A stretch of DNA of 64,000 nt from an uncultured Planctomycetales bacterium (GTDB lineage Bacteria; Omnitrophota; Gorgyraeia; Zapsychrales; JAHFFX01): contig CAZTCI010000008.1 in NCBI GenBank assembly GCA_964612665.1, positions 1,083 to 65,082 on the forward strand, in the 5' to 3' direction. The position numbers were made by a program, and so were the translations under genes. The notes under the pieces were generated by a model, which was not told the DNA's origin, made no database searches, and was given only the letters and a program-made list of their open reading frames with translations. This document shows, one piece after another, positions 17,638-34,840 of this stretch (the first letter of the stretch is position 1; each line of letters starts with the position of its first letter).

Positions 17638-18468
17638 CTAGAACCGGGCGCTCGCTCCAGCGGTAACCCCGACCGCCGGAGAACCCTTGGATAAGCCAAT
17701 CATCAAATCACCGAAGACTTCATAATCCTGATCAATTTTATGATTGATTGTAAAATCTAAATCCCGCGGATTGGGCCGGCCGCTCACTAAATTTGTCTGT
17801 TCTTCATAAAAAAGTCCGACGGCCGTGTCTTCGGTAAATTGATAGAGTCCGCCGACATCAAAAGAAAATTGATTGTTCAAATCAATGCCTTTGGGATCGC
17901 CAATAAAAGTGTAATAAAGATCAAGGTGTAAACTCCATTCCGTGTTAAGGGTCTTGCTTGTTTCGAGTCCCAACGTCTCGTCCCATTCACCGGTGCCTAA
18001 TCCTTCATCTTTATCAGCGGTGGGAAGTTTGATTTTGGCGACGGGAGAGAGATTGAAGGGAGTCGTTGTTGATTCCGTTAAAAGGTAATAGCTGCCTTTG
18101 ACAAGGACATCGCCAATGCCTTCACTGCTTCTTGTCCCTGAATTGCTTTTGCTCGTTTGAAAAGGACGGCCGGAAAGCGCGCTAATGTTTCGTCCTGATT
18201 CTTGATAAATGTAAGGAATCGTGACCGCCAAATCACCGGCACTGAAATATCGTTTGAGAGTGAAGGGTATGTAGACGGTATTGGTAGTTGCATCTGTTCC
18301 AAAGTCGCCGGAGTCGTAGCTGATGGCCGCTGAGAATTTCCAATCTTTTTGCGCTGTTTCGGTTGAAGGAGTTTCCGTCGAGATGGATTCAGTTTTTTCT
18401 AGAACAGAAGCCCACAGATTTGTGGAACATAGGAGGGTTGCAGCAATAATCAAAACGTGTCGTTTCAT
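17638..18468 (-). CDS. Putative outer-membrane beta-barrel protein (transporter/MetA-pathway-like family).
   Basis: There is a signal peptide (MKRHVLIIAATLLCSTNLWA). The sequence has an amphipathic beta-strand pattern, aromatic girdle residues, and a C-terminal Phe (..ASARF) typical of OMP beta-barrels. ATG 18468 is the preferred start; the ORF opens at 18498. Confidence 0.5.
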   Translation of the reverse strand: MKRHVLIIAATLLCSTNLWASVLEKTESISTETPSTETAQKDWKFSAAISYDSGDFGTDATTNTVYIPFTLKRYFSAGDLAVTIPYIYQESGRNISALSGRPFQTSKSNSGTRSSEGIGDVLVKGSYYLLTESTTTPFNLSPVAKIKLPTADKDEGLGTGEWDETLGLETSKTLNTEWSLHLDLYYTFIGDPKGIDLNNQFSFDVGGLYQFTEDTAVGLFYEEQTNLVSGRPNPRDLDFTINHKIDQDYEVFGDLMIGLSKGSPAVGVTAGASARF

Positions 18469-18747
18469 AGATGTTGTTCTCCTGGGTGTTTTGCGCAAAG
18501 CTGTGATATTGATTATTAAATTGTGTAGTAATAGGCAAAATTATATACGATGAACCAGCGATTGGCAATGTCGAAAAAATAGCGCCCGTCACAATGAAAA
18601 GTCAAGGAGGGCGCAATACAATACAGGAGTAGATTATTATCTTTAAAACTCGCCAGTTTTTTTTCAAAAGATTTTTAAAAATTCCTTCGAAAAAACTTCA
18701 TTCTTATATTGAATAAGTAGACTATTTATTTAATATATAAATGGTTT

Positions 18748-21700
18748 ATGCTGGAAAAAATATATCTTGGGGAATTTTTATTCTCCTTCGCCCCGACGAG
18801 GAATGAATGGAATATAAAACCTCAGTATGATTGTTTTGTGCGGCGAAGTAGGATAGCCAACGGGATAAAACGATTGTTATCTGAGAGCCTTAAGTCCTTG
18901 GTGACAAATAAAAAACGCGAACCAGCGGAAAAATCCATTCTTCTTTCTTTCTTTTTCAGCCATTGTTTCCGTCGGATTTTCTTACCTTTCTGGCCTGCCT
19001 TCATTTTTTCTTTTATAAATTTATTTGTTATAAATAGTCAAACGTCAGTTTGGGCTGATGGTCTTTCAGTTCCAGCATCTTCAAGTGTTAATGTCAATAG
19101 CGGGACGTTGGATGTTCCAGGTAACGTTACGAACTTAGGGACAATCCAAGTTTCAACCGGACGTATTAAAGTCGGCGGCAATTGGGACAATAGTTCTGGG
19201 ACATATACTTCTGGGACAGGTACAACTGAATTTACTAAAGCCTCGGCAACACAAACCCTCAACTCCGGCGGTACAGCTGTCGGTAAAAAGTTTTATAATC
19301 TCACCCACTCCGGCGCAGGCACACTTCAATTTAATGCCAACGACCTAGATCTCGACGGCAGTTTTTCCAATACCGCCGGCACCGTGAACGCCAACGGCAA
19401 AAATATGACCGTAGGTGGTAACTGGGCGAACACAGGAACTTTTACCGCAGGAAGCAACAGTGTTGTCTTTGATGGCGCGAATCAATCCATATCAGGTTCG
19501 ACAACTTTCTATGATTTTGCAAAAACAGTAACCAGCGCGGCAACCTTGACTTTGCCTAGCACCCTCGAACAAATAGTCACACATCACTTAACGTTGCAGG
19601 GCGCTGCCGGACAACTATTGACGATTAAAAGTGATGTTAATGGAAGTCAGCATAAAATCACTTTGCAGTCGGGAGGATTGCAGACGCTTTCGTACTTGAA
19701 TGTGAATGATTCCGACGCCAGCAACGGCCTCGCACTTGTGGCCGGCGCGACTTCAGTCAATACGACGCCGGGAACGAACGTTAACTGGATTTTTGGTGCG
19801 ACCACGATTACTTGGACTGGAAACGTTTCAACTGACTGGGACACGCCGGGCAACTGGAATCTTGGTTTAGTCCCGGGCGCATCCGATGCGGTTGTTATTC
19901 CTAACGTCGCCACGCAGCCAATCTTGGCAACGAATGTGACGATTGCCACTTTAACCATCAATAGCAGCGCGACACTTACTTTAAACGGTAAAAACTTAAC
20001 CGTGACCGGCGCTTTGTCGAACGACGGTACGGTGAGTTTGTTCGGCAGTGAAACCGTTAATATCGGTACCGTTGATCCCGATTCCGGGACATTTTTATTT
20101 ACTGGGGATAACGACGGTATCAGTGAAAACTTTACGATCCCAGATCTCGGCGCGGCCGGGATTGATTACTTTAACGTCGTGATTAATGATACAAGCGGCG
20201 TCAAAGACACCTTCCGCACGAATGCGAATTTAACGATCGCCGGCGCGCTTACCGTCACCGCCGGTACAATCGACGTTTCAACAAACTCCAATACCTTAAC
20301 GACCGCCGGAACACTTACGGTTAACGGCGGCACATTAACGGCGACGAACGGTAACATTGATGCCAACGGCGCCGTGGTTGTTTCATCAGGAACTTTGACT
20401 GCGCCGACAATTGGTAAAACGTTTACCGTCGCTGGTAACTTTACCCACTCCGGCGGCACGTTTACCAATTCTTCTGGAACTCTAACGCTCGACGGAACCA
20501 GCCAGTCCATCAACGGTTCAACGACCTTCTACAATTTGGCCAAGACGGTTGCTAGTACGGCCACGTTGACGTTTGAAAGTTCCGCGACACAAACTGTTAC
20601 CAATAATTTAACCCTGCAAGGAGCTTCCGGGCAATTGCTGGTGCTCGCCGCTTCAACGCCGACCGTCGCGGCCAATCTTATCCTACAATCCGGCGGGTCG
20701 CAGAATATTTCCTACGTCAATGTGGCTGATAACAATGCCAACGGCGGCACCACGCTGGTCGGTCGTAATGGTTCAGTTAATTCCAACGGCAATTCAAACT
20801 GGTTGTTCGGGGCACAGGATGTTACTTGGACTGGGACTTCGTCAACCGACTGGGACACCGCATCAAACTGGGATTTAGGTTTTGTGCCGGGCAGTACAGA
20901 TTCGGTCATTATCCCGTCGGTGGCGACCCAGCCAGTCTTGGCAACGAATGTCACCGTATTGAATCTAACTTTGCAAGCTTCCGCAACACTTGATCTTAAC
21001 GGTAAAAATATGACGGTTTCTGGAACGCTTGATAACAGCGGTAATGTTAGACTTTTTGGCAGTGAAAGCGTGTCGATCAATGTTCCGGACACAAACTCAG
21101 GTACGTTTACTTATCTTGGAAACGGTGACGGCATCGTTGACACAGATACGATTGCGAACATTGGATACTACAATTTGACAATCAATGATTCACATGCAAC
21201 ACCGGATGTCTTTCAGACCAATGCTGATCTTACCGTCAATGGTGCATTAACAGTAACGGGCGGTACAATGGATATTTCCGCCAATGCCAACACCTTAACC
21301 ACGACGGGCGCATTAACAGTCAACGGCGGTACGTTAACGGCGACAAACGGTAATATCGACGCCAATAATTCAGTAACTGTCAGTTCTGGAACTTTGACGG
21401 CTCCTGGTGCGGGAAAGAACTTTACTGTTGCCGGAAACTTTGCGCATTCAGGTGGCACCTTTACAAATTCCAATGGTACCGTCACTTTGGATACGACAAC
21501 CACGGCGACGATTAGCGGTAACACAACATTTTACAATTTAACCGTGACTACTCCCGCAAAAGAAGTCGACTTTACCGCTGGAACAACCCAAACTGTCACC
21601 AACAATGTTAACTTCACTGGAGATTCGTCGAACGATGTGATCCTTCATTCAACCAGCAATACCGGCGTGAAATGGGACATTACATTCCCCAACGGTACGC

Positions 21701-24700
21701 AATCCGCCAGCTATGTGAGTGTCAAAGATTCCAATGCCAATAGCAACACCATTACCTGCTTTAGCTGTACCAACGGCGGCAACAACAACGCCAACTGGAT
21801 TTTTAGCACGCTTTCGATCGCTGTTCCAGCAAACGGAAAAACAGTCGGCCAAACACCGACGATCATTGGTGTCGCTCCGCCTAACACAGCCGTTACAATT
21901 AAAGATATAAGTAACAACACGGTCGCCACTGTAACATCGGATGCTAATGGAAATTTCCGCGTCGCCTCAAGTACGCTGGCGCTGGGCGCCAATTCTTTAA
22001 AACCGTCTGCGGGTATCTTAAATGGAGTGGCGAATAGTTTAACGGTTGTTGCCAGTCCGACAACATCCCAAGTCCCGACGATTACTTCGCATAACAACGG
22101 CGACCGCGTCAATGGTTCTATGCCCACGATACGCGGTCAGGGTAATCCCAGCAGTACGCTCGCTGTGCTGGCCAGTAATGGCACAGGCAGCTTCTTATTA
22201 CAAACTGTTGGCACCGGCACCGTTGATGCCAGCGGCAATTATGAAGTGACCTTAACGACCGCTTTGCCGAAGGGAACAAATTATCTTTCCGTTACGATTG
22301 ATAACGTGGCGACAAGTATTTTGAATGTGGCTTTGACTGATCCGTTTGGTGTGGTCTTTGATTCTTCGACGGGCCAGCCGATTAAGAATGCGGTTGTTAC
22401 TATTTATAATTCTACAGGCGCTGTCGCGACTCCTGGAGTTGAACTTGATGCGTCTGACACTAATCCCTACACAACTGGTGCCGATGGTTATTATTCATTT
22501 TTGGCCGCTAACGGTGATTATACGATGACCGTCAGTGCGACCGGGTATGATTATCCTTCAACTCAGACATCATTCCCATCGAGCCGTACAGTCACGACGG
22601 GTTCAAAAGGCGAAACATTTACAGTCGCGGGTGTTATTTTACAAATTGACCATCCGATGGATGCCAACGGGCAGCTGCTTCGCATTGAAAAAAGCGCAAA
22701 CAAAAAAGAAGTCCACGTCGGTGAACCAGTGACCTACACGGTCACCATGCAGAACATTTCAACTTCTGATGTTTCGGGTGTTATTTTGGAAGACAAGATT
22801 CCGCCCGGCTTCAAGTTCATTCCCAACCGCGTCATTCTTGACGGTAATCCTATCGCGGATACGCAAACCCAGCGGCCGGTGACTTTCCATGTCGGTAATT
22901 TTGTCGCCGGCACCACGAAGACTTTGAAATATCAGCTCATCGTCGGCAGCGGTGTGACACCCGGAAATTATGACAACGTGGCCGTCGGACGTAATGCCAA
23001 TCAGCTGGCGGTTTCAAACCGGGCGAGCGCAAGCGTCAAAGTTGTGCTCGACCCGCTCTTCGATATGGGCGCGGTTATTGGCAAGGTCTTCTGGGACAAA
23101 AATGAAAACGGCGTTCAAGATCCGCCGACGTATTTCGATATGGACCGCGAAACAATCACCGAGACTTCGATTCCAAACGCACAGATCATCATGGAAGACG
23201 GTACGATGATCCGCTGCGATCAAAACGGACAGTTCAGCGTCCCCGGCATTACACCTGGACGGCACTTGTTTAGAATCGATGAAAGCACACTGCCGGACGG
23301 CGCTTATTTAACGACGGACAAAGTTGTTATCGTCGATATTACAAAAGGCCTGACTGCCAAGGTTAATTTCGGCGTGCAGTTAACTGGAACGACGATTCAA
23401 AACGAACAGGATTTCTTCGTGCATGACGTTAACTTGATCCAGGATAAATCCAAACCGCAGCCGCGGCTGAACGTCAGTCTCTTCAAGAATCAAGTGGTTA
23501 TTAGAAATGATACGTTAAGTGCTCCGGCGGAGTTCAGGATCTTTACCAACTACGCGCCGTTTATCGACAGTTGGAAATTAGAAATCCGCGACAAACAAAG
23601 CGGCCGGTTGATCCGGGCCTTTACCGGCGACCGCAGCAACATTTCCGATCCAATTTATTGGGACGGCAAAGACCAGATTGGCAAAATGGTCCTCGATGAC
23701 CGTCATTATGCTTATAAATTAACGGTCGCTGATAAAGATGGTAACCAAGATGAGACAAGTGAACAGCCATTCGATGTTCTCGTGACCAATCCGGAAAAAG
23801 AAAAATTTGTTGAACTGACCAAAACGATTTTGAATGACAAAAATAAATCACTGACACCGGAGACGAACCAGCAGCTGGTTGAAGCGCAAGACCGCGTCAT
23901 TGATTACCGTCAATGGCTGGCGAACGAATACAAAGGCAACCGGCTCGTTAAGCAAACGATTAAAGTAGACGGCGAAACTGTCTTCTTAGATCGTTATTCG
24001 CCGGATGTGCGGAGCGTGCGCGTCATTAAGACCGATGGAAAATCAATGACCGGCAAGAAAGAATTTTATGAAGTCCCGATCGTCGACCGCCAAGGCTTAA
24101 CGGCGACTGAACTCATTAAAACCCCGCAGGATGTTTCATCTCCGACGAATAAACTTGAAATCATTCTGCCTAAAGGTAATTATGAGATTCAAGTCCAAGA
24201 AGGAAGCAAAGAATTATCACCGGCCGTCCCGGCGCCAAACGTGACACCGCTGTCACCGCCGATACTTCCACCCGACGGCATTCCGACACTGAAACCGTTG
24301 CCGATCCAAACGTATTCCAAAAAAGTAAAAGTCGGCGAGGATTACATGATGTTCGTCGGCATGGGCGATGCCAAAATCGGATACACCTTTGACCGTAGTA
24401 AAGTCGAAGATGTTGCCAAAGATGATCAGTATAAAGCCGGCTTTTGGAGCGAAGGGAAACTGGCGTATTTCTTAAAGGGCAAGATCCTCGGGAAATATCT
24501 TGTTACCTCGAGCTTTGACAGCAACCGCGAACAAAAAGAAATCTTTAAGAATATCAATCCGAACCAGTATTATCCAATTTACGGCGATAATTCTTCCAAA
24601 GATTATTCCGCAACGAACACGCAAGGGAAATTATATTTGCTCGTCGAATGGGACAAGTCGTCGGTTATTTGGGGTAACTACAATGTCGGCTTTACGGATA

Positions 24701-27700
24701 CGGAATTCGCTCAATACAACCGGTCGCTTTACGGCGGAAAAATTGATTATCAAACGGTGGCCGCAACACCGTATGGAGAACCGGACACCAGGGTCGTTTT
24801 ATTCCGCGCGAAAGCCCAGCAGAAAGGGGCGCACAACGAATTCGTCGGGACCGGCGGGTCGCTGTTTTATTTGAAAAACAAAGATGTGATTGAAGGTTCA
24901 GAAAAAGTGAGCGTTCAAATCCGCGATAAGATTACGGGTCTGGTTATTTCGTCACGTGATATGAAACCGCGGGTTGATTATGAAATTGATTATAAAGAAG
25001 GCCGCATCCTTTTCTGGAAGCCGGTTAACATTTTGGTTGAAGGCGCGTCGATCATCTCGAGCCAGTTGTTAAGCGGTAATCCTGTCTATGTACTTACTGA
25101 CTATGAGTACGAACCTTCTGATGATTTTCAACAAGCCACAATTGGTGCGCGCGTGGCGCAGGCTGTTTCCGATAACGTTGTTGTTGGCGGAACTTATGTC
25201 AAAGAAAATCAGCAGGGCGGTGAATACAATTTAAAAGCAACAGACACGACGGTACATCTTGGACATGACGCCACGATCAAAGGCGAATATGCGGAGTCGC
25301 AGGCACAGGCAACCGGTACTTTTGTTTCGACCGACGGAGGGTTAACATTTACCGAATTGCAAACGAACCAAGACGCGCAAGGAAAGGCCTATGGTCTGCG
25401 TGGCGACGCGCGGTTGTTTAACCGCATAGGATTGACCAGTTATTATAAATGGATTGATGATGAATTCTCAACGCCCGCCACAACTGCTCAGCAGGGTAAG
25501 GAGTTGGAAGGTGTGGCCTTGGATTACGAAATCTCGCCGAAGACGCGGCTTTCGATGCGTCATGATGTTCAACGGTTGCTTGACAGCGGTAATGCGCAAA
25601 CACAGCTTCAAGTGGGCGCGTCACGCACCGAAACAACGTCGATGCAGATAGTCCATCAAATCCGCCAGCTCACGTTAACAGGTGAATACCGTCATCAACA
25701 AGTAACTGATAAAAATGGACAATTTGTTTCTGAGACAAACACGCAAGGAGATTTGTTAGCGTTAAAAGCTGACTACGCGATTAATGATAACGCCAATGTT
25801 TATCTCGAGCGCCAGCAATCCATCCAAGGCCCATCTAACGCGCAAACAACCGTCGGCGGCGCAATCCGTCCTGACAAAACATTAGAATTGCGCGCGAGTG
25901 AAACGATCGCCGAGAATGGAAACGCGACGAGTTTGGGCGCAACCAAGAATTTCAATGACAAAGTTAAAATCGCGGGTGATTACACAATTGTCAAAAATAA
26001 TGCGGGACGCACGTCGGGCTTAAGCGGTTCAGCCAATCAAGGCAGCCAGTTGAGTCCAGGCGTCAATGTCAGCAGTTCAGCCAGTGATAAAGATGGCGCG
26101 CAAGCTTCTTTAGGTGCTGATATAAAGTTAACTGATAAAACCAGCGTGCAGGGCGCGCTCGGACTCGGACAAACCGTGAGCGGTGAAAAAACAACGACGC
26201 TCGCCCTTGGGGGACGCACTAAAGTTGACAGCCAAACGGATCTCGGCGCCAAAATCGGTATGACTCAGTCTTCCTCCGGCGGAGTCGGGGAAACTCTTGG
26301 CGCCGATGCCACACGTCAAGTTGATGATACAACGCAAGTGACAAGCGGCGTTGATGTCAGTCAGCGGCCCGGCGAATCCAAGATGACGAATTTCAAATTA
26401 GGCGGGCAAAAGCAATTGACCGACGAGGTTAAGATGACATCCGAACGTTCTTTTGGATTTTCGCGCGACATTGTCTCTCAGAACAGCAGTTACGGAATGA
26501 TTCGAGAAAAAGACGGGCATAAACTTCAAGGAACAATCACCCGTCAGCATTCCGAAGGCACGCAAGAAACGTCTGACTCCAACATTTATGGATTGTCCGG
26601 CGATGTGGGCAGCGACAAGTTTGCTTTAAACGGTTCTTATGAACGCGGGATTGTTCAGTCCCATAACGGCCAGCAGTCGGACCGCAATGCAGTCAGCGTC
26701 GGGATGGGATACGTTGATAAAGACAAAGAGACCGGCGTTGAAAAGTTAAAAGCGTCGAGCAAAATTGAATTCCGCAAAGATTCCGGCGACACCGATAAAT
26801 ATCAATATGTTCTTTATAATTCTGCTGAAGGCCGCTTGACACCGGAGATTTCTATTTATTTGAAGACACAATTGTCTAAGACAGAAAATACAAGCAGCAA
26901 TAACAAAGAAGCAGAATACAAAGAAATTATTTTAGGCGGCGCTTACCGTCCGATTTACGCCGACCGTTTAAACATTTTGGGACGCTACACGTATTTGACT
27001 AATTTGTCGCCGGACAGTCAATCTAGTAACGCTAGCGTCGATGAGACGCGGGCCCATGTGTTTGCGGGTGAAGTTGTTTATGATCTTACGCCTCAATGGC
27101 AGCTGTCGGAAAAATTGGCTTTGCGTTTAAATGAAGAAAGAGTCCCGGGCTTTGATTTTACGCAAACTCAGACGTGGCTCATGATTCATCGTTTGAATTA
27201 CAACATCGCGAAGGATTGGCAGGTGAGCGGCGAATACCGCAGATTGGCGCAGATTCAAGCCAAAGACAGCCAAAGCGGTTTTCTCCTTGAGGTTTCACGT
27301 GATGTGAACGACTTTGCTCAGTTGGGCGCTGGATGGAATTTCACTCAGTTTAGTGATGACTTAACTGATTTGGGTTACACGGCGCAAGGGCCATTTTTGC
27401 GGATGACGACGAAACTCTATGACCGCACGCCGCAGGAAAAAGCCCTGGCGCATGAAAGATGGCTGCAGGACAGAATTAATATTTGGGCTTGGGACATCAT
27501 CAATCGTGAATTGGTCAGGCCGGATAGTCCGATTGTAGAACAGCTTAATGAATTCTTTGCAATGGCCAAGCAAGCGCGGGCCGAAGGGAATTTGGAAGAG
27601 GCCCAAAAAATTTATAAAGACATTATTGTAGCGGGCGACATTATGTTTAATGAAGCGTCTCAATATATTTTAGGGCGCGTTTCGTTTGAGGAAAAGCTGC

Positions 27701-27810
27701 AAGATTATGCCTCGATGGCGAACGAACATTTCAAACAAGGTGAGTATGAAGAGGCGAAAAAATTATGGCAAAAAATACTAGAAGAGACAGAAAAGCCTGT
27801 GGTAAAATGA
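18748..27810 (+). CDS. Giant (~3020 aa) cell-surface protein with beta-helix-like repeats, a DUF11-like domain, an SdrD-B-like domain, a long beta-strand-rich C-terminal region and a terminal TPR-like helical tail.
   Basis: Repeated ~150-aa units (NWIFGA..TWTG..STDWDT..NW(N/D)LG.VPG..D.V.IP..ATQP.LATNVT..LT) resemble adhesin passenger repeats. The DUF11-like block is VHVGEPVTYTVTMQNISTSDVSGVILEDKIPPGFKFIPNRV. The SdrD-B-like block is GKVFWDKNENGVQD..NAQIIMEDGT. The stop codon overlaps the next gene's start as ATGA. The start codon is uncertain; the N-terminal ~100 aa are atypical. Confidence 0.7.
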   Translation: MLEKIYLGEFLFSFAPTRNEWNIKPQYDCFVRRSRIANGIKRLLSESLKSLVTNKKREPAEKSILLSFFFSHCFRRIFLPFWPAFIFSFINLFVINSQTSVWADGLSVPASSSVNVNSGTLDVPGNVTNLGTIQVSTGRIKVGGNWDNSSGTYTSGTGTTEFTKASATQTLNSGGTAVGKKFYNLTHSGAGTLQFNANDLDLDGSFSNTAGTVNANGKNMTVGGNWANTGTFTAGSNSVVFDGANQSISGSTTFYDFAKTVTSAATLTLPSTLEQIVTHHLTLQGAAGQLLTIKSDVNGSQHKITLQSGGLQTLSYLNVNDSDASNGLALVAGATSVNTTPGTNVNWIFGATTITWTGNVSTDWDTPGNWNLGLVPGASDAVVIPNVATQPILATNVTIATLTINSSATLTLNGKNLTVTGALSNDGTVSLFGSETVNIGTVDPDSGTFLFTGDNDGISENFTIPDLGAAGIDYFNVVINDTSGVKDTFRTNANLTIAGALTVTAGTIDVSTNSNTLTTAGTLTVNGGTLTATNGNIDANGAVVVSSGTLTAPTIGKTFTVAGNFTHSGGTFTNSSGTLTLDGTSQSINGSTTFYNLAKTVASTATLTFESSATQTVTNNLTLQGASGQLLVLAASTPTVAANLILQSGGSQNISYVNVADNNANGGTTLVGRNGSVNSNGNSNWLFGAQDVTWTGTSSTDWDTASNWDLGFVPGSTDSVIIPSVATQPVLATNVTVLNLTLQASATLDLNGKNMTVSGTLDNSGNVRLFGSESVSINVPDTNSGTFTYLGNGDGIVDTDTIANIGYYNLTINDSHATPDVFQTNADLTVNGALTVTGGTMDISANANTLTTTGALTVNGGTLTATNGNIDANNSVTVSSGTLTAPGAGKNFTVAGNFAHSGGTFTNSNGTVTLDTTTTATISGNTTFYNLTVTTPAKEVDFTAGTTQTVTNNVNFTGDSSNDVILHSTSNTGVKWDITFPNGTQSASYVSVKDSNANSNTITCFSCTNGGNNNANWIFSTLSIAVPANGKTVGQTPTIIGVAPPNTAVTIKDISNNTVATVTSDANGNFRVASSTLALGANSLKPSAGILNGVANSLTVVASPTTSQVPTITSHNNGDRVNGSMPTIRGQGNPSSTLAVLASNGTGSFLLQTVGTGTVDASGNYEVTLTTALPKGTNYLSVTIDNVATSILNVALTDPFGVVFDSSTGQPIKNAVVTIYNSTGAVATPGVELDASDTNPYTTGADGYYSFLAANGDYTMTVSATGYDYPSTQTSFPSSRTVTTGSKGETFTVAGVILQIDHPMDANGQLLRIEKSANKKEVHVGEPVTYTVTMQNISTSDVSGVILEDKIPPGFKFIPNRVILDGNPIADTQTQRPVTFHVGNFVAGTTKTLKYQLIVGSGVTPGNYDNVAVGRNANQLAVSNRASASVKVVLDPLFDMGAVIGKVFWDKNENGVQDPPTYFDMDRETITETSIPNAQIIMEDGTMIRCDQNGQFSVPGITPGRHLFRIDESTLPDGAYLTTDKVVIVDITKGLTAKVNFGVQLTGTTIQNEQDFFVHDVNLIQDKSKPQPRLNVSLFKNQVVIRNDTLSAPAEFRIFTNYAPFIDSWKLEIRDKQSGRLIRAFTGDRSNISDPIYWDGKDQIGKMVLDDRHYAYKLTVADKDGNQDETSEQPFDVLVTNPEKEKFVELTKTILNDKNKSLTPETNQQLVEAQDRVIDYRQWLANEYKGNRLVKQTIKVDGETVFLDRYSPDVRSVRVIKTDGKSMTGKKEFYEVPIVDRQGLTATELIKTPQDVSSPTNKLEIILPKGNYEIQVQEGSKELSPAVPAPNVTPLSPPILPPDGIPTLKPLPIQTYSKKVKVGEDYMMFVGMGDAKIGYTFDRSKVEDVAKDDQYKAGFWSEGKLAYFLKGKILGKYLVTSSFDSNREQKEIFKNINPNQYYPIYGDNSSKDYSATNTQGKLYLLVEWDKSSVIWGNYNVGFTDTEFAQYNRSLYGGKIDYQTVAATPYGEPDTRVVLFRAKAQQKGAHNEFVGTGGSLFYLKNKDVIEGSEKVSVQIRDKITGLVISSRDMKPRVDYEIDYKEGRILFWKPVNILVEGASIISSQLLSGNPVYVLTDYEYEPSDDFQQATIGARVAQAVSDNVVVGGTYVKENQQGGEYNLKATDTTVHLGHDATIKGEYAESQAQATGTFVSTDGGLTFTELQTNQDAQGKAYGLRGDARLFNRIGLTSYYKWIDDEFSTPATTAQQGKELEGVALDYEISPKTRLSMRHDVQRLLDSGNAQTQLQVGASRTETTSMQIVHQIRQLTLTGEYRHQQVTDKNGQFVSETNTQGDLLALKADYAINDNANVYLERQQSIQGPSNAQTTVGGAIRPDKTLELRASETIAENGNATSLGATKNFNDKVKIAGDYTIVKNNAGRTSGLSGSANQGSQLSPGVNVSSSASDKDGAQASLGADIKLTDKTSVQGALGLGQTVSGEKTTTLALGGRTKVDSQTDLGAKIGMTQSSSGGVGETLGADATRQVDDTTQVTSGVDVSQRPGESKMTNFKLGGQKQLTDEVKMTSERSFGFSRDIVSQNSSYGMIREKDGHKLQGTITRQHSEGTQETSDSNIYGLSGDVGSDKFALNGSYERGIVQSHNGQQSDRNAVSVGMGYVDKDKETGVEKLKASSKIEFRKDSGDTDKYQYVLYNSAEGRLTPEISIYLKTQLSKTENTSSNNKEAEYKEIILGGAYRPIYADRLNILGRYTYLTNLSPDSQSSNASVDETRAHVFAGEVVYDLTPQWQLSEKLALRLNEERVPGFDFTQTQTWLMIHRLNYNIAKDWQVSGEYRRLAQIQAKDSQSGFLLEVSRDVNDFAQLGAGWNFTQFSDDLTDLGYTAQGPFLRMTTKLYDRTPQEKALAHERWLQDRINIWAWDIINRELVRPDSPIVEQLNEFFAMAKQARAEGNLEEAQKIYKDIIVAGDIMFNEASQYILGRVSFEEKLQDYASMANEHFKQGEYEEAKKLWQKILEETEKPVVK

Positions 27811-30800
27811 CCGCAATGTCTACGGCAAAAATATTGAAAAATTTTTTAATTGTCTTTTCGCTGCCTTTTTGTATTGTTGCATTCAATACTTTTGCTGCGG
27901 CTGCTGAAACACCTCAAACACAAGACACCCAAACCTCGACGGCAACTACGCCCGTATCAACGCCAAGTTCTACAGCGGATTCCTCCGCTTCTTCTGATAC
28001 ACCATCATCCTCTGATCAACAACCCATGGCCATTCCAACCCTGCCAGAAAAAAAATCACTTTCCTCTAAAGATCAATCCGGTTACACCGTTAATCTTCAA
28101 GAACTTATTAAACGTTCCAAAGAAAAAATAAAGGAAGTTAATAAGAAATTGGAAAACCAGGCCAAGAAAAAACGCAACCAGCAGCGCGAAGAAAAAGCGC
28201 GTCAATATTACGAGCGCGGCAATCAACTCTATGCCGAAGGCCGTTACGATGAAGCCCGACTGGAATGGGAAAAAGCAATTAAGATTACGGAACATCCGGA
28301 AATGAAAGATTATGTGCGTGAAAATCCGGGACTGTTTAATCATGAAGTATCAGCGTTGAAAAAGGCCGCTAACGCCCAGAAAAAACAAATTGCTTTAACT
28401 GAAGAACAGCGCGACAAAGAAGTCTCAACCAGTTATAACGCTGCGGTGTCTTTATATAAACAAAAGAAATTTGAAGCGGCGAAAGAAGAATTTTTACACG
28501 TCGAAGAATTGATGCCCGGCCATAAGGCGACGGAAAGTTATTTAAAGATCATTGACCAGGATATCCTAACCCAAAGAACAGAATTAGATAAAGAGAAAGT
28601 AAAAGAAGAAGAACGCCAGCGCCAGGAAGAAGAGCTCGCCCAGAAAAAAGCCAAAGAAGAATGGCAGAAACGGATCGACAAGCAGGAAAAAGAACGTGAA
28701 CAAAAGCAGTTGGCCCAAGCTGACACTATTTATCGCGAAGCGGTTGTGTTGTATCAGCACAAAAGATTTGTTCAGGCTAAAGAAAAATTTCAGGAAGTCG
28801 AATGGGTGTCACCCAATTATAAGAACACGCAGAAATATTTAAAGAATATAGATAAGGATATTAAGGAAGAAGACCGCCGCGTTATTCTTGAACGCCAGCG
28901 GGAATTGGATGAAGAAAAGAAAAAAACAGACACTCAAAAGAAGAAAGAACAAGATGATCGCGAAGTTCAAATTACGGAGCAGAAACGCGAAGAGTTAAGA
29001 AAATTGACTGATAAAACTGATGCCACCTATGAAGAAGCGGTTGCTTTATATAAACATCAAGATTTTATGGCCGCGCGCAGTAAATTTGTGGAAGTCGAAA
29101 ATTTGGTGGCTGATTATAAAGACACCAATAAATACTTGGATAAAATCGATGTCATTATTGAAAGACAAACCGGCCAGAAGCCTGCCAAAGATGTAAAGAC
29201 GGACACAAAAGAATCTCAACCCGTCGAGGAAAAGACAGCTAAAGCTATTTCCAAATCCGAAAGCTTGCAAGAAGAAGTCAAAAAAGAACCTGCCGCTCAG
29301 GAAGAGTCCGCACCTAAAGAATCTAAAGAGCAAGTCGTTAAAAATGAAAGTGAAGAATCTCAAACTAAAGATGAAAGTTCATCCGCTGAAGAATCCTCAT
29401 CGTCAGTGACGGCGGCGTTAACCAGTTCTGAATCTCAAGAAAAAGTTGAAGAAGCTAAAGAACCAGAAGTTTCAACTGCCAAGAAAGATTCCATTGCTGA
29501 GTCAGCGGAATCTGAAAAAGCTGTTCAAGCTAATAATAATGAAGAATCCGTTGAACTCCGACGGTTGAAAGAAAAACAAAAAGAGTTAGAAGAAAAAGAA
29601 AGAGAAGCAACTCAAAGACAACGCATGCTTCAAGATGCCAAAGCCAAGGCCGAAGAAGCTAAACGTGCCGCCGAGGAAAAAGCCAATCAAGCGCAGGCCG
29701 CTTTAGCGGAAAAAGAAAAAGCTGTCAAGGATTTAGCAAAATTACAAACCGATTTAGAAGCGGCCCGAAAAAAAGTTCAAGAAGAGAAAGTAAAACAAGC
29801 CCGGCTTGCTGAAGAGCAAAAAAGAAAAGAGGCTGTTTTAAATGAAATCGCCGAGGATAAATCTGTGAAAGCGGCTAATGAAAAAGAAATTGCGTTAGCT
29901 CAACAGAAAGCCAACGAAGCGCGTCAGTTAGTTGAAGACAAGACCCGGCTTGAAGAAGCTGCGCGTCATGAAAAAGAAAATGCGTTGGCCCAACAGAAGG
30001 TCTTTGAAGAAAAAGCCCGTCGGGCGCAAGCAAAAATGAAACAGCTTCAGGAAAGACGAGAAAGAATCGTCCAGAATTTAAGAGAAAGAGAAATTTTTGT
30101 AGAATCGCCCACTGACGTCAATCCGGAAACATTTGGCGCGCCTTTGTTGTTTGAGCCGGAGAAAGAAACCCTGCGCTCGCAAGCTGCCCGTTATAAAGCA
30201 GAGCTTCGCCGGGCCAGAGAAGAAAATCGTCAAGAAAAGATTGCTCAACAGGAGAAAGAACGGCTGCGCCAAAAAACCGATGAAGCCCAACTTCGTATTG
30301 AACAAAATGAAAAACGCGCGGAAGCGGTTATGAAAAAGAATGATGAAATCTTACAAAGGCATCTTATTAATAAAGAAGATGCGGAGGATCAGCATTTTAA
30401 CCGTGAAAAATTAGCGCAAGATAAACGTTCGATGAAGGAAATGAACCGCGAAGAATTAAATGAGCAGAAAAGAAAAGGTAAAGAGCTTAAGCGGATGATT
30501 AAGCTGGATGAAGAACGTGAAGCTGAACTTGCCCGTCAACAGGCCGATCAAATCAAATTGCTGGAAAACCGTAACAATCAGCAGGAAATTCAATGTTCCG
30601 AGGAGAACTTACCCATTTTAGAAAGCAGCGGCATGATTCCGGGCAACTGGCACATTATGTGCGAACCGCGCCAGCAGCGTCAGAAGGCGGATGTTTCGTT
30701 ACTGGACCAAGAAAAGAAATTAAAACAATTTTATAACGATTTAAAAGAACACAAATATCCTAAAATTCAAAAGAAGCAAACTTCCCATCAAAAACCAGTG

Positions 30801-33800
30801 AAGCCAGAAGCAGGAAAAGAACCTGCCAAAGAACCGCCCCCAGAAATAAAAGAAGCACCACAGGTCCCTTCTCCTGCAGAGCCGGCGCAGCCTGCGGCGC
30901 AACCTAGCGTTCAAAGTCAAGAAATATCGGCCGCAGCCGTTTCTCCGACGTCAACTGCAAATGAAAAACCCGAACCAAGTATTGAAGATATCTATAAAAA
31001 TGCGATCAATCTTTATAAACAAAAAAATTATGAATTGGCCAAACAGGAATTTGAAGCGATTCAAGTCAAGAATCCGAATTACAAAAAGACCAACACTTAT
31101 CTTTCACGCACTGTCAAGATGATTGAAAAGCAAAAAGAGCAGGTGCGGCTTAATCAGGAAAAATTACGCAATAAATTGATGGCGGCCCAAGAACAACAAG
31201 CACCTTCCTCTATGTCAGCAGGTGAAAGTGCCCAAGGAGCGGGCGCTGCTACGGCCACTGCAAATGCGGAAACCGCGCCACAGGCCAACAATGTTCAAAC
31301 CCCGGAGCCGGCCGCGCCTCATATAGAGGAAGCTAAGGCTGCTGCGCAGCAAGGCAAACATAAATTGACCGAATCCGAGCTTCTCTTAATTAAGCACGCG
31401 GATGAAATGTATCAAAATGCGCTCAATCTTTATCATGATAATAAGATTGAGGAATCGCAGCAGGCGTTTAATGAATTTGAAAAACTGCTAGCAAACAACC
31501 GTTTCCCCGACGATTATTTAAAGAAGATGCGTCTTAAAATAAGGAGTGAACAAAATAAAATCTTGAAAGCTCAGGCTGAAAAGCAAGAGCGCATAAATCG
31601 ACAAAAGCAAAAAGAAGAGCAGCTCGCCAAGAAAAAGGCTGAAGCGGCGCAAAGAATTAAAGACCGCGAAGAAGCCCGCCTTAAAAAACAACAAGAACAG
31701 GCCCAAAAAAAGGCTGAAGCCGAAGCCCGCCAAAAAGAGTGGCAGGAAAAATTGGTCCAGCAAAAAGAAGAACAAAAAAAACAGACCGAGGAAGAAGCCA
31801 AGGTAAAGGCTTTTGAAAAAGAAAATCAAGAAGCAAAAAAGAAAGAACAACAAGAACAAAAACAAGAACAGGCTTCAATCCAAAAGTCCGCTGAAAAACA
31901 AAGCCAGGCTGAAAAAGAAACTCAAACAATAAATCCGCCAGCAGCCCCAGCAACTGCGGCTGCTTCGGAACAAGCCAAAAAAAATGAAGAAAAAAAGCCT
32001 TTAGAAGAAGACAGTTATTTAACGCCTAAACAAAAGGCGATTCTGGCCGCGCAGCAGCGCAAACAAGAGCAAGAAGACCGGCGCAATAAATTGAAGGAAG
32101 AAAAAGAACAGGCCCGTGCCGAATTAGCCCGCCAGCGCGAAGCAGAACGGCAAGAAAAGATACAAAGAAAAGAAGAAGAACGCGAAGCCCGGATTGCCCG
32201 ACGGGAAGAAGAGAAACAGCAAAAAGAAGCCAAACGTCAGGCGGCCCTTCAAAAAAAGTTGGCGCAAGCATCGACCCTTGCCGCTGCTAAAACTTCGGCA
32301 CCAGAATCTTCCGAGAAAACCTCTGACAATTATTCTTTCATGCAAAAAATGAATTCCAGCCAGACGTCAAGCACAGCTTCTCAGCCAGAATCTCAAGCGC
32401 CAGCGCCTAATCCAGCGGAAGAAAAATTAGTGCAGAAACATGAGGCAAAGCAACAGGAATTCGAAGACGGCATAGACTCATTGTATCAAGATGCCCTAAA
32501 ACTTTACAATCAGCGCGACTTGACTTCATCCAAAGTAGTTTTTGAAGAATTAGAAAGCATGAAAAGCAATTACAAAGATACGCGTTCTTATTTGGACAAG
32601 ATCAATCAAGGTTTGACTAAGGGAGAAGAAGGAAAGCAAAATACATTATCGAAAAGTGAGACTGAGCAGCCGCCTGTTGCTGAAATTTCAACTTCTCCGG
32701 CAGAATCAAATTCTGCTCAAGCGAATAACAAGGGAACCACAGAATCACTAGAAACGTCTCCTGTTGAAGTGTCAGGGGAGCCGGTTAAAAATCAGTTAGC
32801 TCAGACTAAAGAAGAAAACACAGCTCTGCCGCCGCCAAACTTTGAAGAAAAAGAATCAAAGAGCGAAGCAACTCCAACAGAAAAACAAGAACAAGCTAAA
32901 CAAGAGAAGAAATTGCGTTCGAATCCTTTGGTCGACAATCTGTATAACGAAGGCGTTAAGATGTATAAAAAAGGGAATTACGCAGAAGCACAGAAAAAGT
33001 TTGATGCAACTGAAACCCTCGCTGGCGATTATAAGCTCACCAAAAAATATCTGGCTGAAATTGAAGAATCCAAATTAAGTCAAAATAAATTAGAAAATGC
33101 CCGTCGGGAAAAGTTGGCGGCTGAACATGAGAGACAGCTCGAAAAAGTAAAGGCAAAAGAAGCTAAAAAACAAGCCAAGCTTGCGCAATTGCAGCAGAAG
33201 CAAGAAGAAAAACTTTTCCGTGAAAAACAAATACAAGAGAAAAAAGAATTAGCCCTTAAGCAAAAGGAAGATCATCTTGCAGCTCAACAGGAAGAGAGAG
33301 AAAAGAAAAAACAATCAAGGCTCGCTTCGCTTCAACAAGGACAAGATGACCAAATTTTACGCGAAAAAGAAACCCAACAATTAGCCGAACGCCAAAAGCA
33401 AGAATCTATGGCCGCTGAAGAGGCCCAATCAGAACGAAAGCAAAAAGTTTTGCTCGAACGCCAGCAAAAAGAAGATGCGAGAAGACAAGCGCTTGAGCAA
33501 AAACAAAAAGAGCAATTATGGCGTGCAAAAGAAAAGCAAGAGCAAAGAGAAATTGCCAGACGTGAAAAAGAAGAACGCCTCGCCGAACTTCAAGAAGAAG
33601 CTGACAGAAAGCATAGAGCGTTAATGGAAAGGCAACAACAAATAGAAGAAGAACAATTTCTGCGTGAACAAAAACAAAGACAAGCCCAAGTAGAGCGGGC
33701 TCAGCTAGACAACGAGCCGTCGACGGATCGCTACAACAATAGACGTAACACTAATCCCCGTTCACTTATTGAACAGACGGAGCAATTTAGAGATGAGGGC

Positions 33801-34385
33801 AGAAGGGCGTTACTTCAACAAAAAGGAGACGAACGGACGTGGCGTGACAGACAAAAACAAGAACAGCAAGATCAAAGACAGCAAATGCTGGCCCTGCAAT
33901 GCGAACAGGAAAAACAAAAAAGAGAATTAAGGGATTTCAGTAAGGCCATGGACACCGAATTGAACCGCGTGGAAAGAAGTTTGGATGAAAATAAAAGAAT
34001 GACTGCCTTGGCATCGTCGAGATATTCCTCAGCGAAGTACGGCCGTCCTTCTTATCCAACCAGGACAAAAGCAAAGCCCAGAAGTTCGGCAGCGTCTTCG
34101 CAGGGGACAGAATTTGATTCTCCTTATAGTAACGATTTAAGAAACCCGAATTGCTTTATTAAAGCCGAGGCGCTTTATAAAGAAGGGCTCCGTTTTTATG
34201 ATCTCCAAGATTTTGAAAGGGCCCAGCGGAAATTTCTAGAGGTCGAACACCTGGTGCCTGGATACAAACGCGTCCGTTATTATTTAAATAATTTACCAAC
34301 CTGCCCTAGGTCTTTAGACTCCCAATCCAAAAGAGAGCAGGGCACTGATAGTCTGATTGCCGAAACGTTAGAAAAAAGACGATGA
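27807..34385 (+). CDS. Giant (~2190 aa) secreted charged coiled-coil protein with nine dispersed single TPR-like modules.
   Basis: ATG 27807 overlaps the upstream stop. The signal peptide is MTAMSTAKILKNFLIVFSLPFCIVAFNTFAAAAE. There are long K/E/Q/R-rich heptad-like stretches. Nine ~45-aa modules fit Y..A..LY....F..A...F..VE.L.P.YK.T..YL..I, for example YEEAVALYKHQDFMAARSKFVEVENLVADYKDTNKYLDKID. Confidence 0.7.
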   Translation: MTAMSTAKILKNFLIVFSLPFCIVAFNTFAAAAETPQTQDTQTSTATTPVSTPSSTADSSASSDTPSSSDQQPMAIPTLPEKKSLSSKDQSGYTVNLQELIKRSKEKIKEVNKKLENQAKKKRNQQREEKARQYYERGNQLYAEGRYDEARLEWEKAIKITEHPEMKDYVRENPGLFNHEVSALKKAANAQKKQIALTEEQRDKEVSTSYNAAVSLYKQKKFEAAKEEFLHVEELMPGHKATESYLKIIDQDILTQRTELDKEKVKEEERQRQEEELAQKKAKEEWQKRIDKQEKEREQKQLAQADTIYREAVVLYQHKRFVQAKEKFQEVEWVSPNYKNTQKYLKNIDKDIKEEDRRVILERQRELDEEKKKTDTQKKKEQDDREVQITEQKREELRKLTDKTDATYEEAVALYKHQDFMAARSKFVEVENLVADYKDTNKYLDKIDVIIERQTGQKPAKDVKTDTKESQPVEEKTAKAISKSESLQEEVKKEPAAQEESAPKESKEQVVKNESEESQTKDESSSAEESSSSVTAALTSSESQEKVEEAKEPEVSTAKKDSIAESAESEKAVQANNNEESVELRRLKEKQKELEEKEREATQRQRMLQDAKAKAEEAKRAAEEKANQAQAALAEKEKAVKDLAKLQTDLEAARKKVQEEKVKQARLAEEQKRKEAVLNEIAEDKSVKAANEKEIALAQQKANEARQLVEDKTRLEEAARHEKENALAQQKVFEEKARRAQAKMKQLQERRERIVQNLREREIFVESPTDVNPETFGAPLLFEPEKETLRSQAARYKAELRRAREENRQEKIAQQEKERLRQKTDEAQLRIEQNEKRAEAVMKKNDEILQRHLINKEDAEDQHFNREKLAQDKRSMKEMNREELNEQKRKGKELKRMIKLDEEREAELARQQADQIKLLENRNNQQEIQCSEENLPILESSGMIPGNWHIMCEPRQQRQKADVSLLDQEKKLKQFYNDLKEHKYPKIQKKQTSHQKPVKPEAGKEPAKEPPPEIKEAPQVPSPAEPAQPAAQPSVQSQEISAAAVSPTSTANEKPEPSIEDIYKNAINLYKQKNYELAKQEFEAIQVKNPNYKKTNTYLSRTVKMIEKQKEQVRLNQEKLRNKLMAAQEQQAPSSMSAGESAQGAGAATATANAETAPQANNVQTPEPAAPHIEEAKAAAQQGKHKLTESELLLIKHADEMYQNALNLYHDNKIEESQQAFNEFEKLLANNRFPDDYLKKMRLKIRSEQNKILKAQAEKQERINRQKQKEEQLAKKKAEAAQRIKDREEARLKKQQEQAQKKAEAEARQKEWQEKLVQQKEEQKKQTEEEAKVKAFEKENQEAKKKEQQEQKQEQASIQKSAEKQSQAEKETQTINPPAAPATAAASEQAKKNEEKKPLEEDSYLTPKQKAILAAQQRKQEQEDRRNKLKEEKEQARAELARQREAERQEKIQRKEEEREARIARREEEKQQKEAKRQAALQKKLAQASTLAAAKTSAPESSEKTSDNYSFMQKMNSSQTSSTASQPESQAPAPNPAEEKLVQKHEAKQQEFEDGIDSLYQDALKLYNQRDLTSSKVVFEELESMKSNYKDTRSYLDKINQGLTKGEEGKQNTLSKSETEQPPVAEISTSPAESNSAQANNKGTTESLETSPVEVSGEPVKNQLAQTKEENTALPPPNFEEKESKSEATPTEKQEQAKQEKKLRSNPLVDNLYNEGVKMYKKGNYAEAQKKFDATETLAGDYKLTKKYLAEIEESKLSQNKLENARREKLAAEHERQLEKVKAKEAKKQAKLAQLQQKQEEKLFREKQIQEKKELALKQKEDHLAAQQEEREKKKQSRLASLQQGQDDQILREKETQQLAERQKQESMAAEEAQSERKQKVLLERQQKEDARRQALEQKQKEQLWRAKEKQEQREIARREKEERLAELQEEADRKHRALMERQQQIEEEQFLREQKQRQAQVERAQLDNEPSTDRYNNRRNTNPRSLIEQTEQFRDEGRRALLQQKGDERTWRDRQKQEQQDQRQQMLALQCEQEKQKRELRDFSKAMDTELNRVERSLDENKRMTALASSRYSSAKYGRPSYPTRTKAKPRSSAASSQGTEFDSPYSNDLRNPNCFIKAEALYKEGLRFYDLQDFERAQRKFLEVEHLVPGYKRVRYYLNNLPTCPRSLDSQSKREQGTDSLIAETLEKRR

Positions 34386-34840
34386 ATTCCAGCAACGTTA
34401 AGCTAAGGATTTTTTATCTATCTGTTTTTTTATTCGGCTTTTTTATCGGCGTTGCCGGCGCCACTCCTCCTTCCGCTATTAATCTTACCTATGATTTAGA
34501 TAACCAAAAATTGCATTTTGATATAACGCATGTCAGCCGCGAACTCCCTCAGCACCGTATCCGTAAAGTTGTTATTTATATAAACGACCAAGAATATAAA
34601 ACCTTAAGATACGTGACTCAAACCAACGGCGCACATTTGATTGATGATCTGACCGTCAATGCCAAGCCTGGTGACAGTATCCGGGTTGTGGCCGTCTGCA
34701 GTGATTCCGGACGTGGAGAACAAACGCTCATTGTCCCAGCGCCGGAGAAAGACAAAACACAGTCAGAAACGCCCGCCCAACCCGCCGTTCAGCTACCAAA
34801 CAATACTCAAAGCAATTCCTCTCCACCAACAAATTATTGA
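34382..34840 (+). CDS. Hypothetical secreted protein (152 aa), translationally coupled to the coiled-coil gene.
   Basis: There is an ATGA overlap with the upstream gene. The N-terminal hydrophobic segment is IFYLSVFLFGFFIGVAGA. The C-terminal tail is Pro/Thr/Gln-rich. Confidence 0.5.
   Translation: MNSSNVKLRIFYLSVFLFGFFIGVAGATPPSAINLTYDLDNQKLHFDITHVSRELPQHRIRKVVIYINDQEYKTLRYVTQTNGAHLIDDLTVNAKPGDSIRVVAVCSDSGRGEQTLIVPAPEKDKTQSETPAQPAVQLPNNTQSNSSPPTNY

Follow-up and report, generated by a model that had tools for sequence, protein, structure and literature searches.

Two adjacent genes in a 64,000-nucleotide stretch of DNA from an uncultured Planctomycetales bacterium (lineage Omnitrophota; assembly GCA_964612665.1, contig CAZTCI010000008.1, forward-strand positions 1,083 to 65,082; hereafter the window, whose own numbering is used throughout) very probably form a conserved and functionally linked barrel-plus-partner module, in which gene 1 encodes a predicted giant outer-membrane beta-barrel with a helical C-terminal tail and gene 2 encodes an exported protein carrying dispersed tetratricopeptide repeat (TPR)-like modules. 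We propose, with a probability of about 0.45, that the gene 2 product docks on the periplasmic tail of the barrel, a predicted contact, and that together they form an outer-membrane-anchored periplasmic scaffold or tether. The best homologues of the genes, and the loci that resemble theirs, are from Candidatus Omnitrophota metagenome-assembled genomes, and the rest of the window carries chromosomal housekeeping genes (recG, rsmD, coaD, plsX, fabH and fabD). If the proposal is correct, the pair is a widespread part of the envelope, so far unstudied, in an uncultured phylum whose members are ultra-small and possibly predatory; regardless of function, the co-occurrence of tail and partner, together with natural fusions, provides a clean prediction of a protein-protein interaction.

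A tailed barrel gene and its downstream partner

The genes at the centre of this analysis, and the segment of gene 1 that connects them, are as follows.

18748 to 27810, + strand: gene 1, an open reading frame (ORF) of 3020 amino acids (aa) counted from the first ATG
27412 to 27807, + strand: C-terminal helical tail of gene 1, about 130 aa, with four helices in an AlphaFold2 (AF2) model and a weak Pfam match to TPR_2 at its very end
27807 to 34385, + strand: gene 2, 2192 aa, a predicted Sec export substrate in which charged helices and disordered linkers join TPR-like nodes
34382 to 34840, + strand: gene 3, 152 aa, with a signal peptide, ATGA-coupled to gene 2 and with no Pfam match

The ORF scan and the junction sequences bear out the three ORFs and the two start-stop overlaps described in a first-pass annotation of this DNA, with the correction that gene 2 is 2192 rather than 2190 aa long. 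Both junctions read ATGA: the gene 1 stop codon, TGA at 27808 to 27810, overlaps the gene 2 ATG at 27807, directly after which the gene 2 signal peptide begins (an in-frame ATG is also present upstream at 27765), and the gene 2 stop at 34383 to 34385 overlaps the gene 3 ATG at 34382. With no nucleotides (nt) between the genes there is no room for a terminator, and the operon that the annotation described is interrupted neither by a terminator between genes 1, 2 and 3 nor by intergenic space. The sole strong terminator-like hairpin nearby is upstream, at 17261 to 17294 (+), where a perfect 15-bp G+C-rich stem is followed by a T run; it lies 3' of a small ORF (16836 to 17237) and is the strongest such site in the region. 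Gene 1 itself probably starts at TTG 18898 or GTG 18901 rather than at ATG 18748, because its orthologues begin about 30 aa ahead of the signal-peptide cleavage site.

The linkage of genes 1 and 2 follows the distribution of the tail. Using a hidden Markov model (HMM) built from 37 gene 2 modules and run on all fetched loci, we find a gene with 7 to 19 modules directly downstream and on the + strand in about 24 of the 26 tail-bearing loci that have enough downstream DNA, but no module gene within 10 kb on either side in any of about 38 tail-less loci; a gene of this type directly downstream goes solely with the tail-bearing form of the barrel, which is an Omnitrophota form, and the dedicated pairing of genes 1 and 2 that had been suggested from this one sequence is supported. 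Gene 2 of the window has nine modules and a short homologue in L002 has four. The two tailed exceptions are L021, which has a cut-down ORF of 249 aa, and L028, in which a further stretch of about 180 TPR-like aa follows the barrel tail without a break in the ORF. In tail-bearing loci barrel and partner are adjacent and co-directional, separated by gaps of -4 nt (the ATGA overlap, seen also in L005 and L007) to +205 nt, and every partner begins with a signal peptide.

Fusions tell the same story, since the barrel proteins P0039 (Ca. Scalindua), P0069 and P0067 carry gene 2-type modules at their own C-termini (E down to 8e-18), and L028 can be counted with them. Taken with the co-occurrence, these fusions argue strongly, on genomic grounds, for modules that function while joined to the barrel's periplasmic end. 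The tail is itself related to the modules, its last hairpin aligning to helices A and B of a gene 2 module (hhalign probability 87.6 %, E = 3.5e-6). Because the C-terminus of the last strand of a substrate of the machinery for beta-barrel assembly (BAM) faces the periplasm, the gene 1 tail is likely to be periplasmic as well.

The first-pass annotation had envisaged a fixed three-gene system, in which a small secreted subunit joins a fibre on the cell surface and a coiled-coil scaffold in the periplasm. All three genes are indeed coupled here by ATGA overlaps, and the closest relatives (L005 and L007, related loci) do contain a gene 3 homologue, 39 % identical; these are, however, the only ones among the fetched loci, gene 3 being absent from the other loci, at least 20, that keep the pair. 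Where it is absent, a DsbH or an AsmA gene directly follows gene 2, DsbH doing so in several loci. Among 5.8 billion proteins searched, the identical sequence alone was recovered, a copy of which is present on contigs of metagenome runs SRR12313477-79, and a crude scan finds almost no heptad periodicity in gene 2 to support a coiled-coil scaffold. The trio is therefore not conserved, and a dedicated three-gene system is distinctly improbable; from its distribution, gene 3 appears to be a lineage-specific accessory and recent add-on outside the conserved module.

The gene 1 barrel and its stalk

The C-terminal part of gene 1 contains two segments ahead of the tail.

24445 to 25077, + strand: pre-barrel domain, aa 1900 to 2110, beta-rich in the AF2 model, with invariant columns and a predicted local distance difference test score (pLDDT) of 80 to 90
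25078 to 27411, + strand: giant beta-barrel region, aa 2111 to 2888 (about 780 aa), with about 42 long antiparallel strands predicted

A search with the last 1140 aa of gene 1 recovers 338 homologues, some with the annotation 'outer membrane beta-barrel protein' or with PF13505. Most are from Omnitrophota, with others in Planctomycetota (Scalindua, Brocadiia), Nitrospirota, Acidobacteriota, Desulfobulbaceae and the Gammaproteobacteria (Thiotrichales, Cocleimonas, Sedimenticola), and scanning a single genome for each species turned up at least 576 barrel-encoding stretches in several phyla. The pre-barrel segment is the best conserved part of the family, with 41 to 73 % identity across phyla. 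Tail-less relatives terminate exactly at the sequence ...GWFINLVGKF/Y, which reads as a classic C-terminal beta-signal of BAM substrates, and the last strand of gene 1, GPFLRMTTKLY, is homologous to this signal but internal, with the 130 residues of the tail following it.

In the AF2 model of the gene 1 C-terminal part (36 sequences; pLDDT 68.7, predicted template modelling score (pTM) 0.55) the pre-barrel domain leads into 42 long antiparallel strands, which four helices follow. Alternate connections between strands are short (2 to 7 residues), as expected of periplasmic turns, and the side-chain alternation moment of the strands is 0.94, as against 0.69 in shuffled sequence. SprA, the FimD usher, SlpA and LptD rank best among the structural neighbours, which also include the barrels of PgaA, AlgE and PelB; sequence and profile searches of the PDB with the barrel, gene 2 and gene 3 yielded generic TPR matches only. 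Homology and model both indicate that the gene 1 C-terminus is a BAM-type outer-membrane beta-barrel, as the first-pass annotation had supposed of this beta-rich region, and the helical TPR-like tail that it noted is present too. A single-chain barrel of about 42 strands is predicted, the strand count being approximate.

A tail-less barrel paralogue of about 1600 aa occurs in loci L050-L079 (for example L053:4289-5386, L079:5187-6260 and L054:8319-11771). In about 15 to 20 Omnitrophota genomes it lies downstream of dapF, dapA and dapB and upstream of uvrA and ftsH, and this conserved housekeeping neighbourhood suggests a core envelope protein, while these five genes offer no clue to its function.

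Segments of the N-terminal part of gene 1, and the relatives that carry OmpA domains, are listed next.

19468 to 21477, + strand: tandem duplication in gene 1, copies of about 335 aa (aa 241 to 577 and 581 to 910) followed by a partial third copy
22108 to 22995, + strand: immunoglobulin (Ig)-like stalk of gene 1, with Pfam matches to Big_6 (aa 1121 to 1185), CarboxypepD_reg (aa 1201 to 1269) and DUF11/CLIPPER (aa 1311 to 1416)
Relatives with OmpA domains: proteins P0087, P0100, P0104, P0117 and P0118; loci L040, L042, L048, L062, L068, L078 and L081

As read from the sequence, the gene 1 signal peptide has a hydrophobic h-region ending ...SVWA|DG, with cleavage near aa 103, and the orthologues have standard signal peptides at the matching point. 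The adhesin-like repeats noted at first pass are real: direct comparison of aa 241 to 577 with aa 581 to 910 gives 60 % identity over 337 aa (E = 1.7e-130), although two BLAST comparisons of the whole protein with itself (one at default settings, one with SEG and composition-based statistics off) did not print the repeat. The duplicated region is rich in G, S, T and N and has no Pfam match. Of the domains named in the same annotation, DUF11, an isopeptide-type domain also known as CLIPPER (PMC12617251), is confirmed by Pfam and is the only NCBIfam match in the proteins (as the DUF11 repeat). The SdrD-B-like segment that follows it, itself followed by an FlgD-Ig-like segment to about aa 1700, is not called by Pfam in gene 1, but its identity to the corresponding part of orthologues is 50 to 69 %, and PF17210 is among the Pfam entries of many family members. 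Full-length orthologues of 2900 to 3400 aa with all of these segments are present in many Omnitrophota genomes and loci.

Domain types such as DUF11/CLIPPER, Big_6 and SdrD_B are typical of surface proteins, and the relatives add Big_1, Invasin_D3 and choice-of-anchor domains. These domains are one basis for the main rival reading, which we consider unlikely, of a secretion or display machine of two-partner or autotransporter type; here a wide translocon barrel would export and anchor the gene 1 fibre, and perhaps the gene 2 protein, with the tail serving the gene 2 head as a docking receptor in the way that POTRA domains serve the domain recognized in two-partner secretion (TPS). A layout of this kind is found in the Thiotrichales (Cocleimonas, L004:1-7537), where a gene of 1200 aa with a signal peptide of its own encodes the barrel alone and a separate 1262-aa Ig-like gene upstream (Big_6, Big_13, CshA_repeat, SdrD_B) corresponds to the remainder of a split gene 1; a fibre encoded separately upstream agrees with a barrel that serves in export or anchoring. 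That the head is the most conserved part of gene 2 is in line with a receptor, and attachment to host cells is thought to occur in the Omnitrophota (PMC10066038). The fusions, however, fix one or two modules at the periplasmic C-terminus of the barrel and are hard to square with gene 2 as an export substrate, and an unfolded, charged substrate would need no barrel of about 42 strands. In tail-less relatives from the Gammaproteobacteria, Acidobacteriota and Desulfobulbaceae, moreover, one or two OmpA peptidoglycan-binding domains lie between the Ig-like stalk and the barrel, which implies that the base of their N-terminal part is periplasmic and stays there. This OmpA_C-like domain (PF00691) is confined to the tail-less relatives; neither gene 1 nor any tail-bearing locus has it. 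Pfam and NCBIfam scans gave no match to the autotransporter barrel (PF03797), the intimin barrel, POTRA or TPS.

Gene 2 as a chain of TPR-like nodes

Gene 2 is occupied by a conserved head and a series of separated modules, as listed below.

28080 to 28346, + strand: basic head helix and first canonical TPR (module 1, aa 135), aa 92 to 180 approximately, with invariant RNQxREEKAR...ITEHPEM
28434 to 28571, + strand: module 2, aa 210 to 255
28731 to 28868, + strand: module 3, aa 309 to 354
29028 to 29165, + strand: module 4, aa 408 to 453
30993 to 31130, + strand: module 5, aa 1063 to 1108
31410 to 31547, + strand: module 6, aa 1202 to 1247, a degenerate copy
32484 to 32621, + strand: module 7, aa 1560 to 1605
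32943 to 33080, + strand: module 8, aa 1713 to 1758
34176 to 34313, + strand: module 9, aa 2124 to 2169, the conserved C-terminal module

A pattern scan finds exactly nine modules, beginning at aa 135, 210, 309, 408, 1063, 1202, 1560, 1713 and 2124 and spaced 75 to 655 aa apart, in agreement with the nine dispersed TPR-like units of the first-pass annotation. Pfam recognizes only TPR_2, which scores 53.2 bits in gene 2 (cut-off 27) and reaches 98.9 bits in the homologue from L003. The annotation was also right that the protein is exported and rich in K, E, Q and R (45 % of residues), but its description as a coiled coil does not stand, there being almost no heptad periodicity by a crude test: scanned in windows, the protein has 11 residues of heptad-like class, as against 832 that count as charged and poor in hydrophobic residues, with about 38 % of the protein resembling charged single helix, about 20 % P/G/S/T-rich linker and 19 % modules. 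Judged from its sequence, then, gene 2 is not a heptad coiled coil. Homologues of gene 2 range from 600 to 2200 aa with 4 to 19 modules, in some cases at a tight 63-aa period, and they too end with a module; their near-invariant N-terminal head (Y.YDLK.LI.KS..NIK.VN.KIK.QA..KRNQ.REEKAREYY...ITEHPEM) is the most conserved part. In a library of 1.84 billion proteins the family amounts to 205 representative clusters at E <= 1e-30.

In an AF2 model of gene 2 aa 85 to 460 (pLDDT 87.5, pTM 0.35) the chain is extended, with helices of 45 to 78 aa joined by B helices of 14 aa, and each module is a TPR-like three-helix node whose third helix runs on into the next node. Whether the dispersed modules pack against one another within the molecule had been raised in the first-pass annotation; in the monomer model they do not, and appear as separate nodes on long continuous helices. 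Foldseek searches with the model returned TPR proteins only, as weak and local matches (root-mean-square deviation of 50 to 80 Å to TPR arrays, with no global match), and no solved structure resembling the whole gene 2 protein was found. Isolated nodes on long single helices, in place of tandem arrays, would be a new use of TPR units.

It is very improbable that gene 2 is a divergent member of a known family of periplasmic TPR or long-helix proteins (CpoB/YbgF, TolA domain II, BamD or NlpI) that lies beside gene 1 by chance. One homologue is labelled 'TolA-binding protein' by a source, and the gene 2 profile weakly matches CpoB/YbgF in the PDB at E = 0.05 to 0.06 and YfiO/BamD below threshold, but this similarity is generic to TPRs and under every family threshold, and tol-pal genes are absent from the window. 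The SMC-like or Tol-Pal identity that the first-pass annotation named as refuting its reading is not borne out, and gene 2 matches no characterized family: there are no ATPase, SMC_N or hinge matches and a signal peptide is present, and the CpoB profile match (E = 0.05) is marginal. Incidental adjacency of genes 1 and 2 is excluded by the near-perfect co-occurrence with tailed barrels and by the fusions.

The Sec signal peptide of gene 2, the lack of a lipobox and the lack of a linked secretion system suggest that its product is periplasmic. In the scaffold or tether that we favour, BAM would insert the gene 1 protein, the C-terminal residues (about 780) forming one very large barrel, with Ig-like domains and repeats making up a variable stalk or fibre N-terminal to the conserved pre-barrel domain and the 130-aa four-helix tail projecting into the periplasm after the last strand. 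The gene 2 protein, exported by Sec, would remain in the periplasm as an extended chain of nodes, each helix C leading through a long charged single helix or a disordered linker to the next helix A, and its conserved head, perhaps with further modules, would dock on the TPR-like end of the barrel tail. Each barrel might then carry a long flexible helical strand beneath the outer membrane, or one strand could cross-link several barrels, in a role analogous to the periplasmic parts of OmpA, OmpM or SlpA but divided over two polypeptides; a neighbouring AsmA-like protein would fit a cluster for outer-membrane biogenesis.

Several observations weigh against this proposal. Confidence in the barrel model, at the scores given above, is moderate, with a low-confidence G/S/T-rich stretch at model residues 540 to 700, and chains that form multiple barrels are known (PMC8346858), so that the predicted strands need not form a single one. 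The gene 2 head helix is basic (mean +5) and the tail approximately neutral, and hence there is no charge complementarity between them. The 3.6-fold range in partner length (600 to 2200 aa) speaks against a simple periplasmic ruler. Finally, Pfam and NCBIfam detect no peptidoglycan-binding or inner-membrane-anchoring domain in gene 2, which leaves the far end of any tether without a candidate.

Synthase-dependent exopolysaccharide export, too, has as its hallmark a TPR protein paired with an outer-membrane barrel, and a large-substrate channel, for polysaccharide export or macromolecule uptake, could follow the logic of BcsC, PgaA, PelB and AlgK-AlgE, with gene 2 guiding a polymer or recruiting enzymes between the inner membrane and the barrel. 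The PgaA, AlgE and PelB barrels among the structural neighbours, the glycosyltransferases downstream of the pair (PMT_2 at 42712 and GT2 at 44652) and a Glucodextran_B domain beside the barrel in relatives are compatible with such a channel, but these glycosyltransferases show no synteny with the pair at other loci and no synthase or polymer-modifying enzyme is conserved beside it. The known systems moreover combine tandem TPR superhelices with barrels of 16 to 18 strands, whereas the TPR units here are isolated nodes, and we regard a channel of this kind as improbable. A porin of the BcsC/PgaA/PelB type in particular was rejected, as there are no family matches, the TPR part is a separate gene and non-tandem, and no synthase is conserved nearby.

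Known systems and the gene neighbourhood

The only defining features of known systems that we recognize in the pair are an outer-membrane beta-barrel and the presence of TPR motifs; no characterized system matches. By function the closest are the OmpM and SlpA tethers and OmpA. OmpM of the Negativicutes and SlpA of Deinococcus likewise combine a large outer-membrane barrel with a long helical periplasmic element and have the same proposed role of connecting the outer membrane to the layers beneath, and the 30-strand SlpA barrel is among the best structural neighbours of gene 1. Genes 1 and 2, however, have no SLH domain and no sequence homology to either; their helical element is a separate polypeptide for a C-terminal tail rather than an N-terminal coiled coil in the same chain, its helices are charged, lack heptads and are interrupted by TPR-like nodes, and the barrel is larger at about 42 predicted strands. 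OmpA-family proteins are similar in joining an outer-membrane barrel to periplasmic anchoring parts, and distant members of the barrel family have a genuine OmpA peptidoglycan-binding domain, but gene 1 has none, the domain is N-terminal rather than C-terminal to the barrel in those relatives, and the strands number about 42 as opposed to 8.

By structure the nearest are SprA and the predicted 38- and 40-strand barrels. SprA, the translocon of the type 9 secretion system (T9SS), is the largest solved single-chain barrel with 36 strands (10.64898/2026.03.07.710327); it has no sequence similarity to gene 1, different accessory domains and fewer strands than the approximately 42 predicted here, and no T9SS genes lie near gene 1. 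A computationally defined superfamily of large outer-membrane beta-barrels (OMBBs) includes barrels predicted to have 38 and 40 strands (Solan et al., PNAS 2021, PMC8346858), and the gene 1 family may be one of these predicted single barrels that are bigger than any solved; the main text of that study makes no mention of Omnitrophota, Planctomycetes or DUF11, nor do its available passages describe a tail or partner gene. Gene 1 is a candidate for the largest single-chain outer-membrane barrel, which raises the question of how BAM, perhaps with the adjacent AsmA-like protein, would assemble about 42 strands.

Gene 2 comes closest to the TPR adaptors of the periplasm, CpoB among them, and its connectivity is most like that of spectrin and single-helix rods. 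CpoB/YbgF, BamD, NlpI and LbcA are all periplasmic TPR proteins, and CpoB joins an N-terminal helical oligomerization region to its TPRs; they are nevertheless compact tandem arrays of 100 to 300 aa, whereas gene 2 has nine isolated nodes (4 to 19 in homologues) spread over 600 to 2200 aa. The trimeric N-terminal coiled coil, compact C-terminal TPR and tol-pal operon that characterize CpoB/YbgF are all missing from gene 2, which has the 34-aa helix-turn-helix motif of TPR proteins but not their tandem superhelical stacking. Spectrin repeats share the continuation of the last helix of a three-helix node as the first of the next, and ER/K single-alpha-helix spacers share the long, charged, hydrophobic-poor helices between nodes; both are eukaryotic and without homology to gene 2, whose nodes are TPR-derived, have a short 14-aa B helix and would function in the bacterial periplasm.

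Autotransporters of types Va and Ve resemble gene 1 in uniting, within a single chain, a C-terminal barrel and a passenger-like N-terminal region that is repetitive or Ig-like, and relatives carry Big_1 and Invasin_D3, but gene 1 has about 42 predicted strands rather than 12, its domain order is opposite to that of intimin, and in relatives an OmpA domain intervenes between stalk and barrel. A classical type Va autotransporter was rejected from the absence of a PF03797 match and the size of the barrel region (about 780 aa, against a 12-strand barrel), and an inverse type Ve autotransporter from the reversed domain order and the absence of an intimin-barrel match.

The gene pair is not described in the searchable Omnitrophota literature, including papers on giant genes and lifestyle. 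A tether would be of interest because no known outer-membrane tether is detectable in the related phylum Planctomycetes, where a novel attachment system may exist (Witwinowski et al., 10.1101/2021.05.31.446380), and the pair is a candidate for the means by which members of the Planctomycetes-Verrucomicrobia-Chlamydiae superphylum (the PVC group), which lack recognizable Lpp, Pal or OmpM, couple their outer membrane to the layers beneath. A more ambitious form of the proposal, speculative and rather unlikely, is that the pair is an unrecognized outer-membrane tether or sub-membrane skeleton of Omnitrophota, with fusions in anammox Planctomycetota, in which the largest single-chain barrel (about 42 strands) is combined with TPR nodes on single alpha-helices that cross-link barrels or join them to the wall.

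Two genes downstream of gene 3 recur beside the pair in other loci.

34923 to 37106, + strand: DsbH/DUF255 thioredoxin-like gene, often between gene 2 and the AsmA-like gene
37246 to 39495, + strand: AsmA-like gene, with Pfam matches to AsmA, DUF748 and YhdP

The AsmA-like gene is the most recurrent third gene, with a homologue downstream and on the same strand in 18 tail-bearing loci. The DsbH/DUF255 gene is present in nine, and its link to the gene 1/gene 2 pair is uncertain. Beyond these, an 833-aa ORF at 40186 to 42687 (+) has no Pfam or NCBIfam match and no homologue in related loci. Divergent from gene 1, at 17638 to 18498 (-), is a gene for a MetA-pathway-type (Phenol_MetA_deg) outer-membrane protein that is not syntenic in related loci.

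Three giant fibre-like ORFs of 1075, 2083 and 2053 aa lie at 58 to 15773 (+), with a strongly G-rich coding strand (GC skew 0.1 to 0.3), 'GNVGIGSTxP..LDV' repeats and, like phage tail fibres, C-terminal matches, here weak, to the intramolecular chaperone Peptidase_S74; an ORF with 54 to 60 % identity lies upstream of the gene 1 orthologue in L006. Another large putative surface protein, of 1350 aa, is encoded at 53405 to 57457 (-), its Ig-like domains being four of Big_7 together with Big_13 and Big_3_3. At 15810 to 16481 (-) lies a gene for an IS200-like Y1 transposase, and distant homologues (21 to 32 % identity) are found upstream of gene 1 orthologues in L001, L005, L009, L010 and L011, an unexpected recurrence that is odd for a mobile element.

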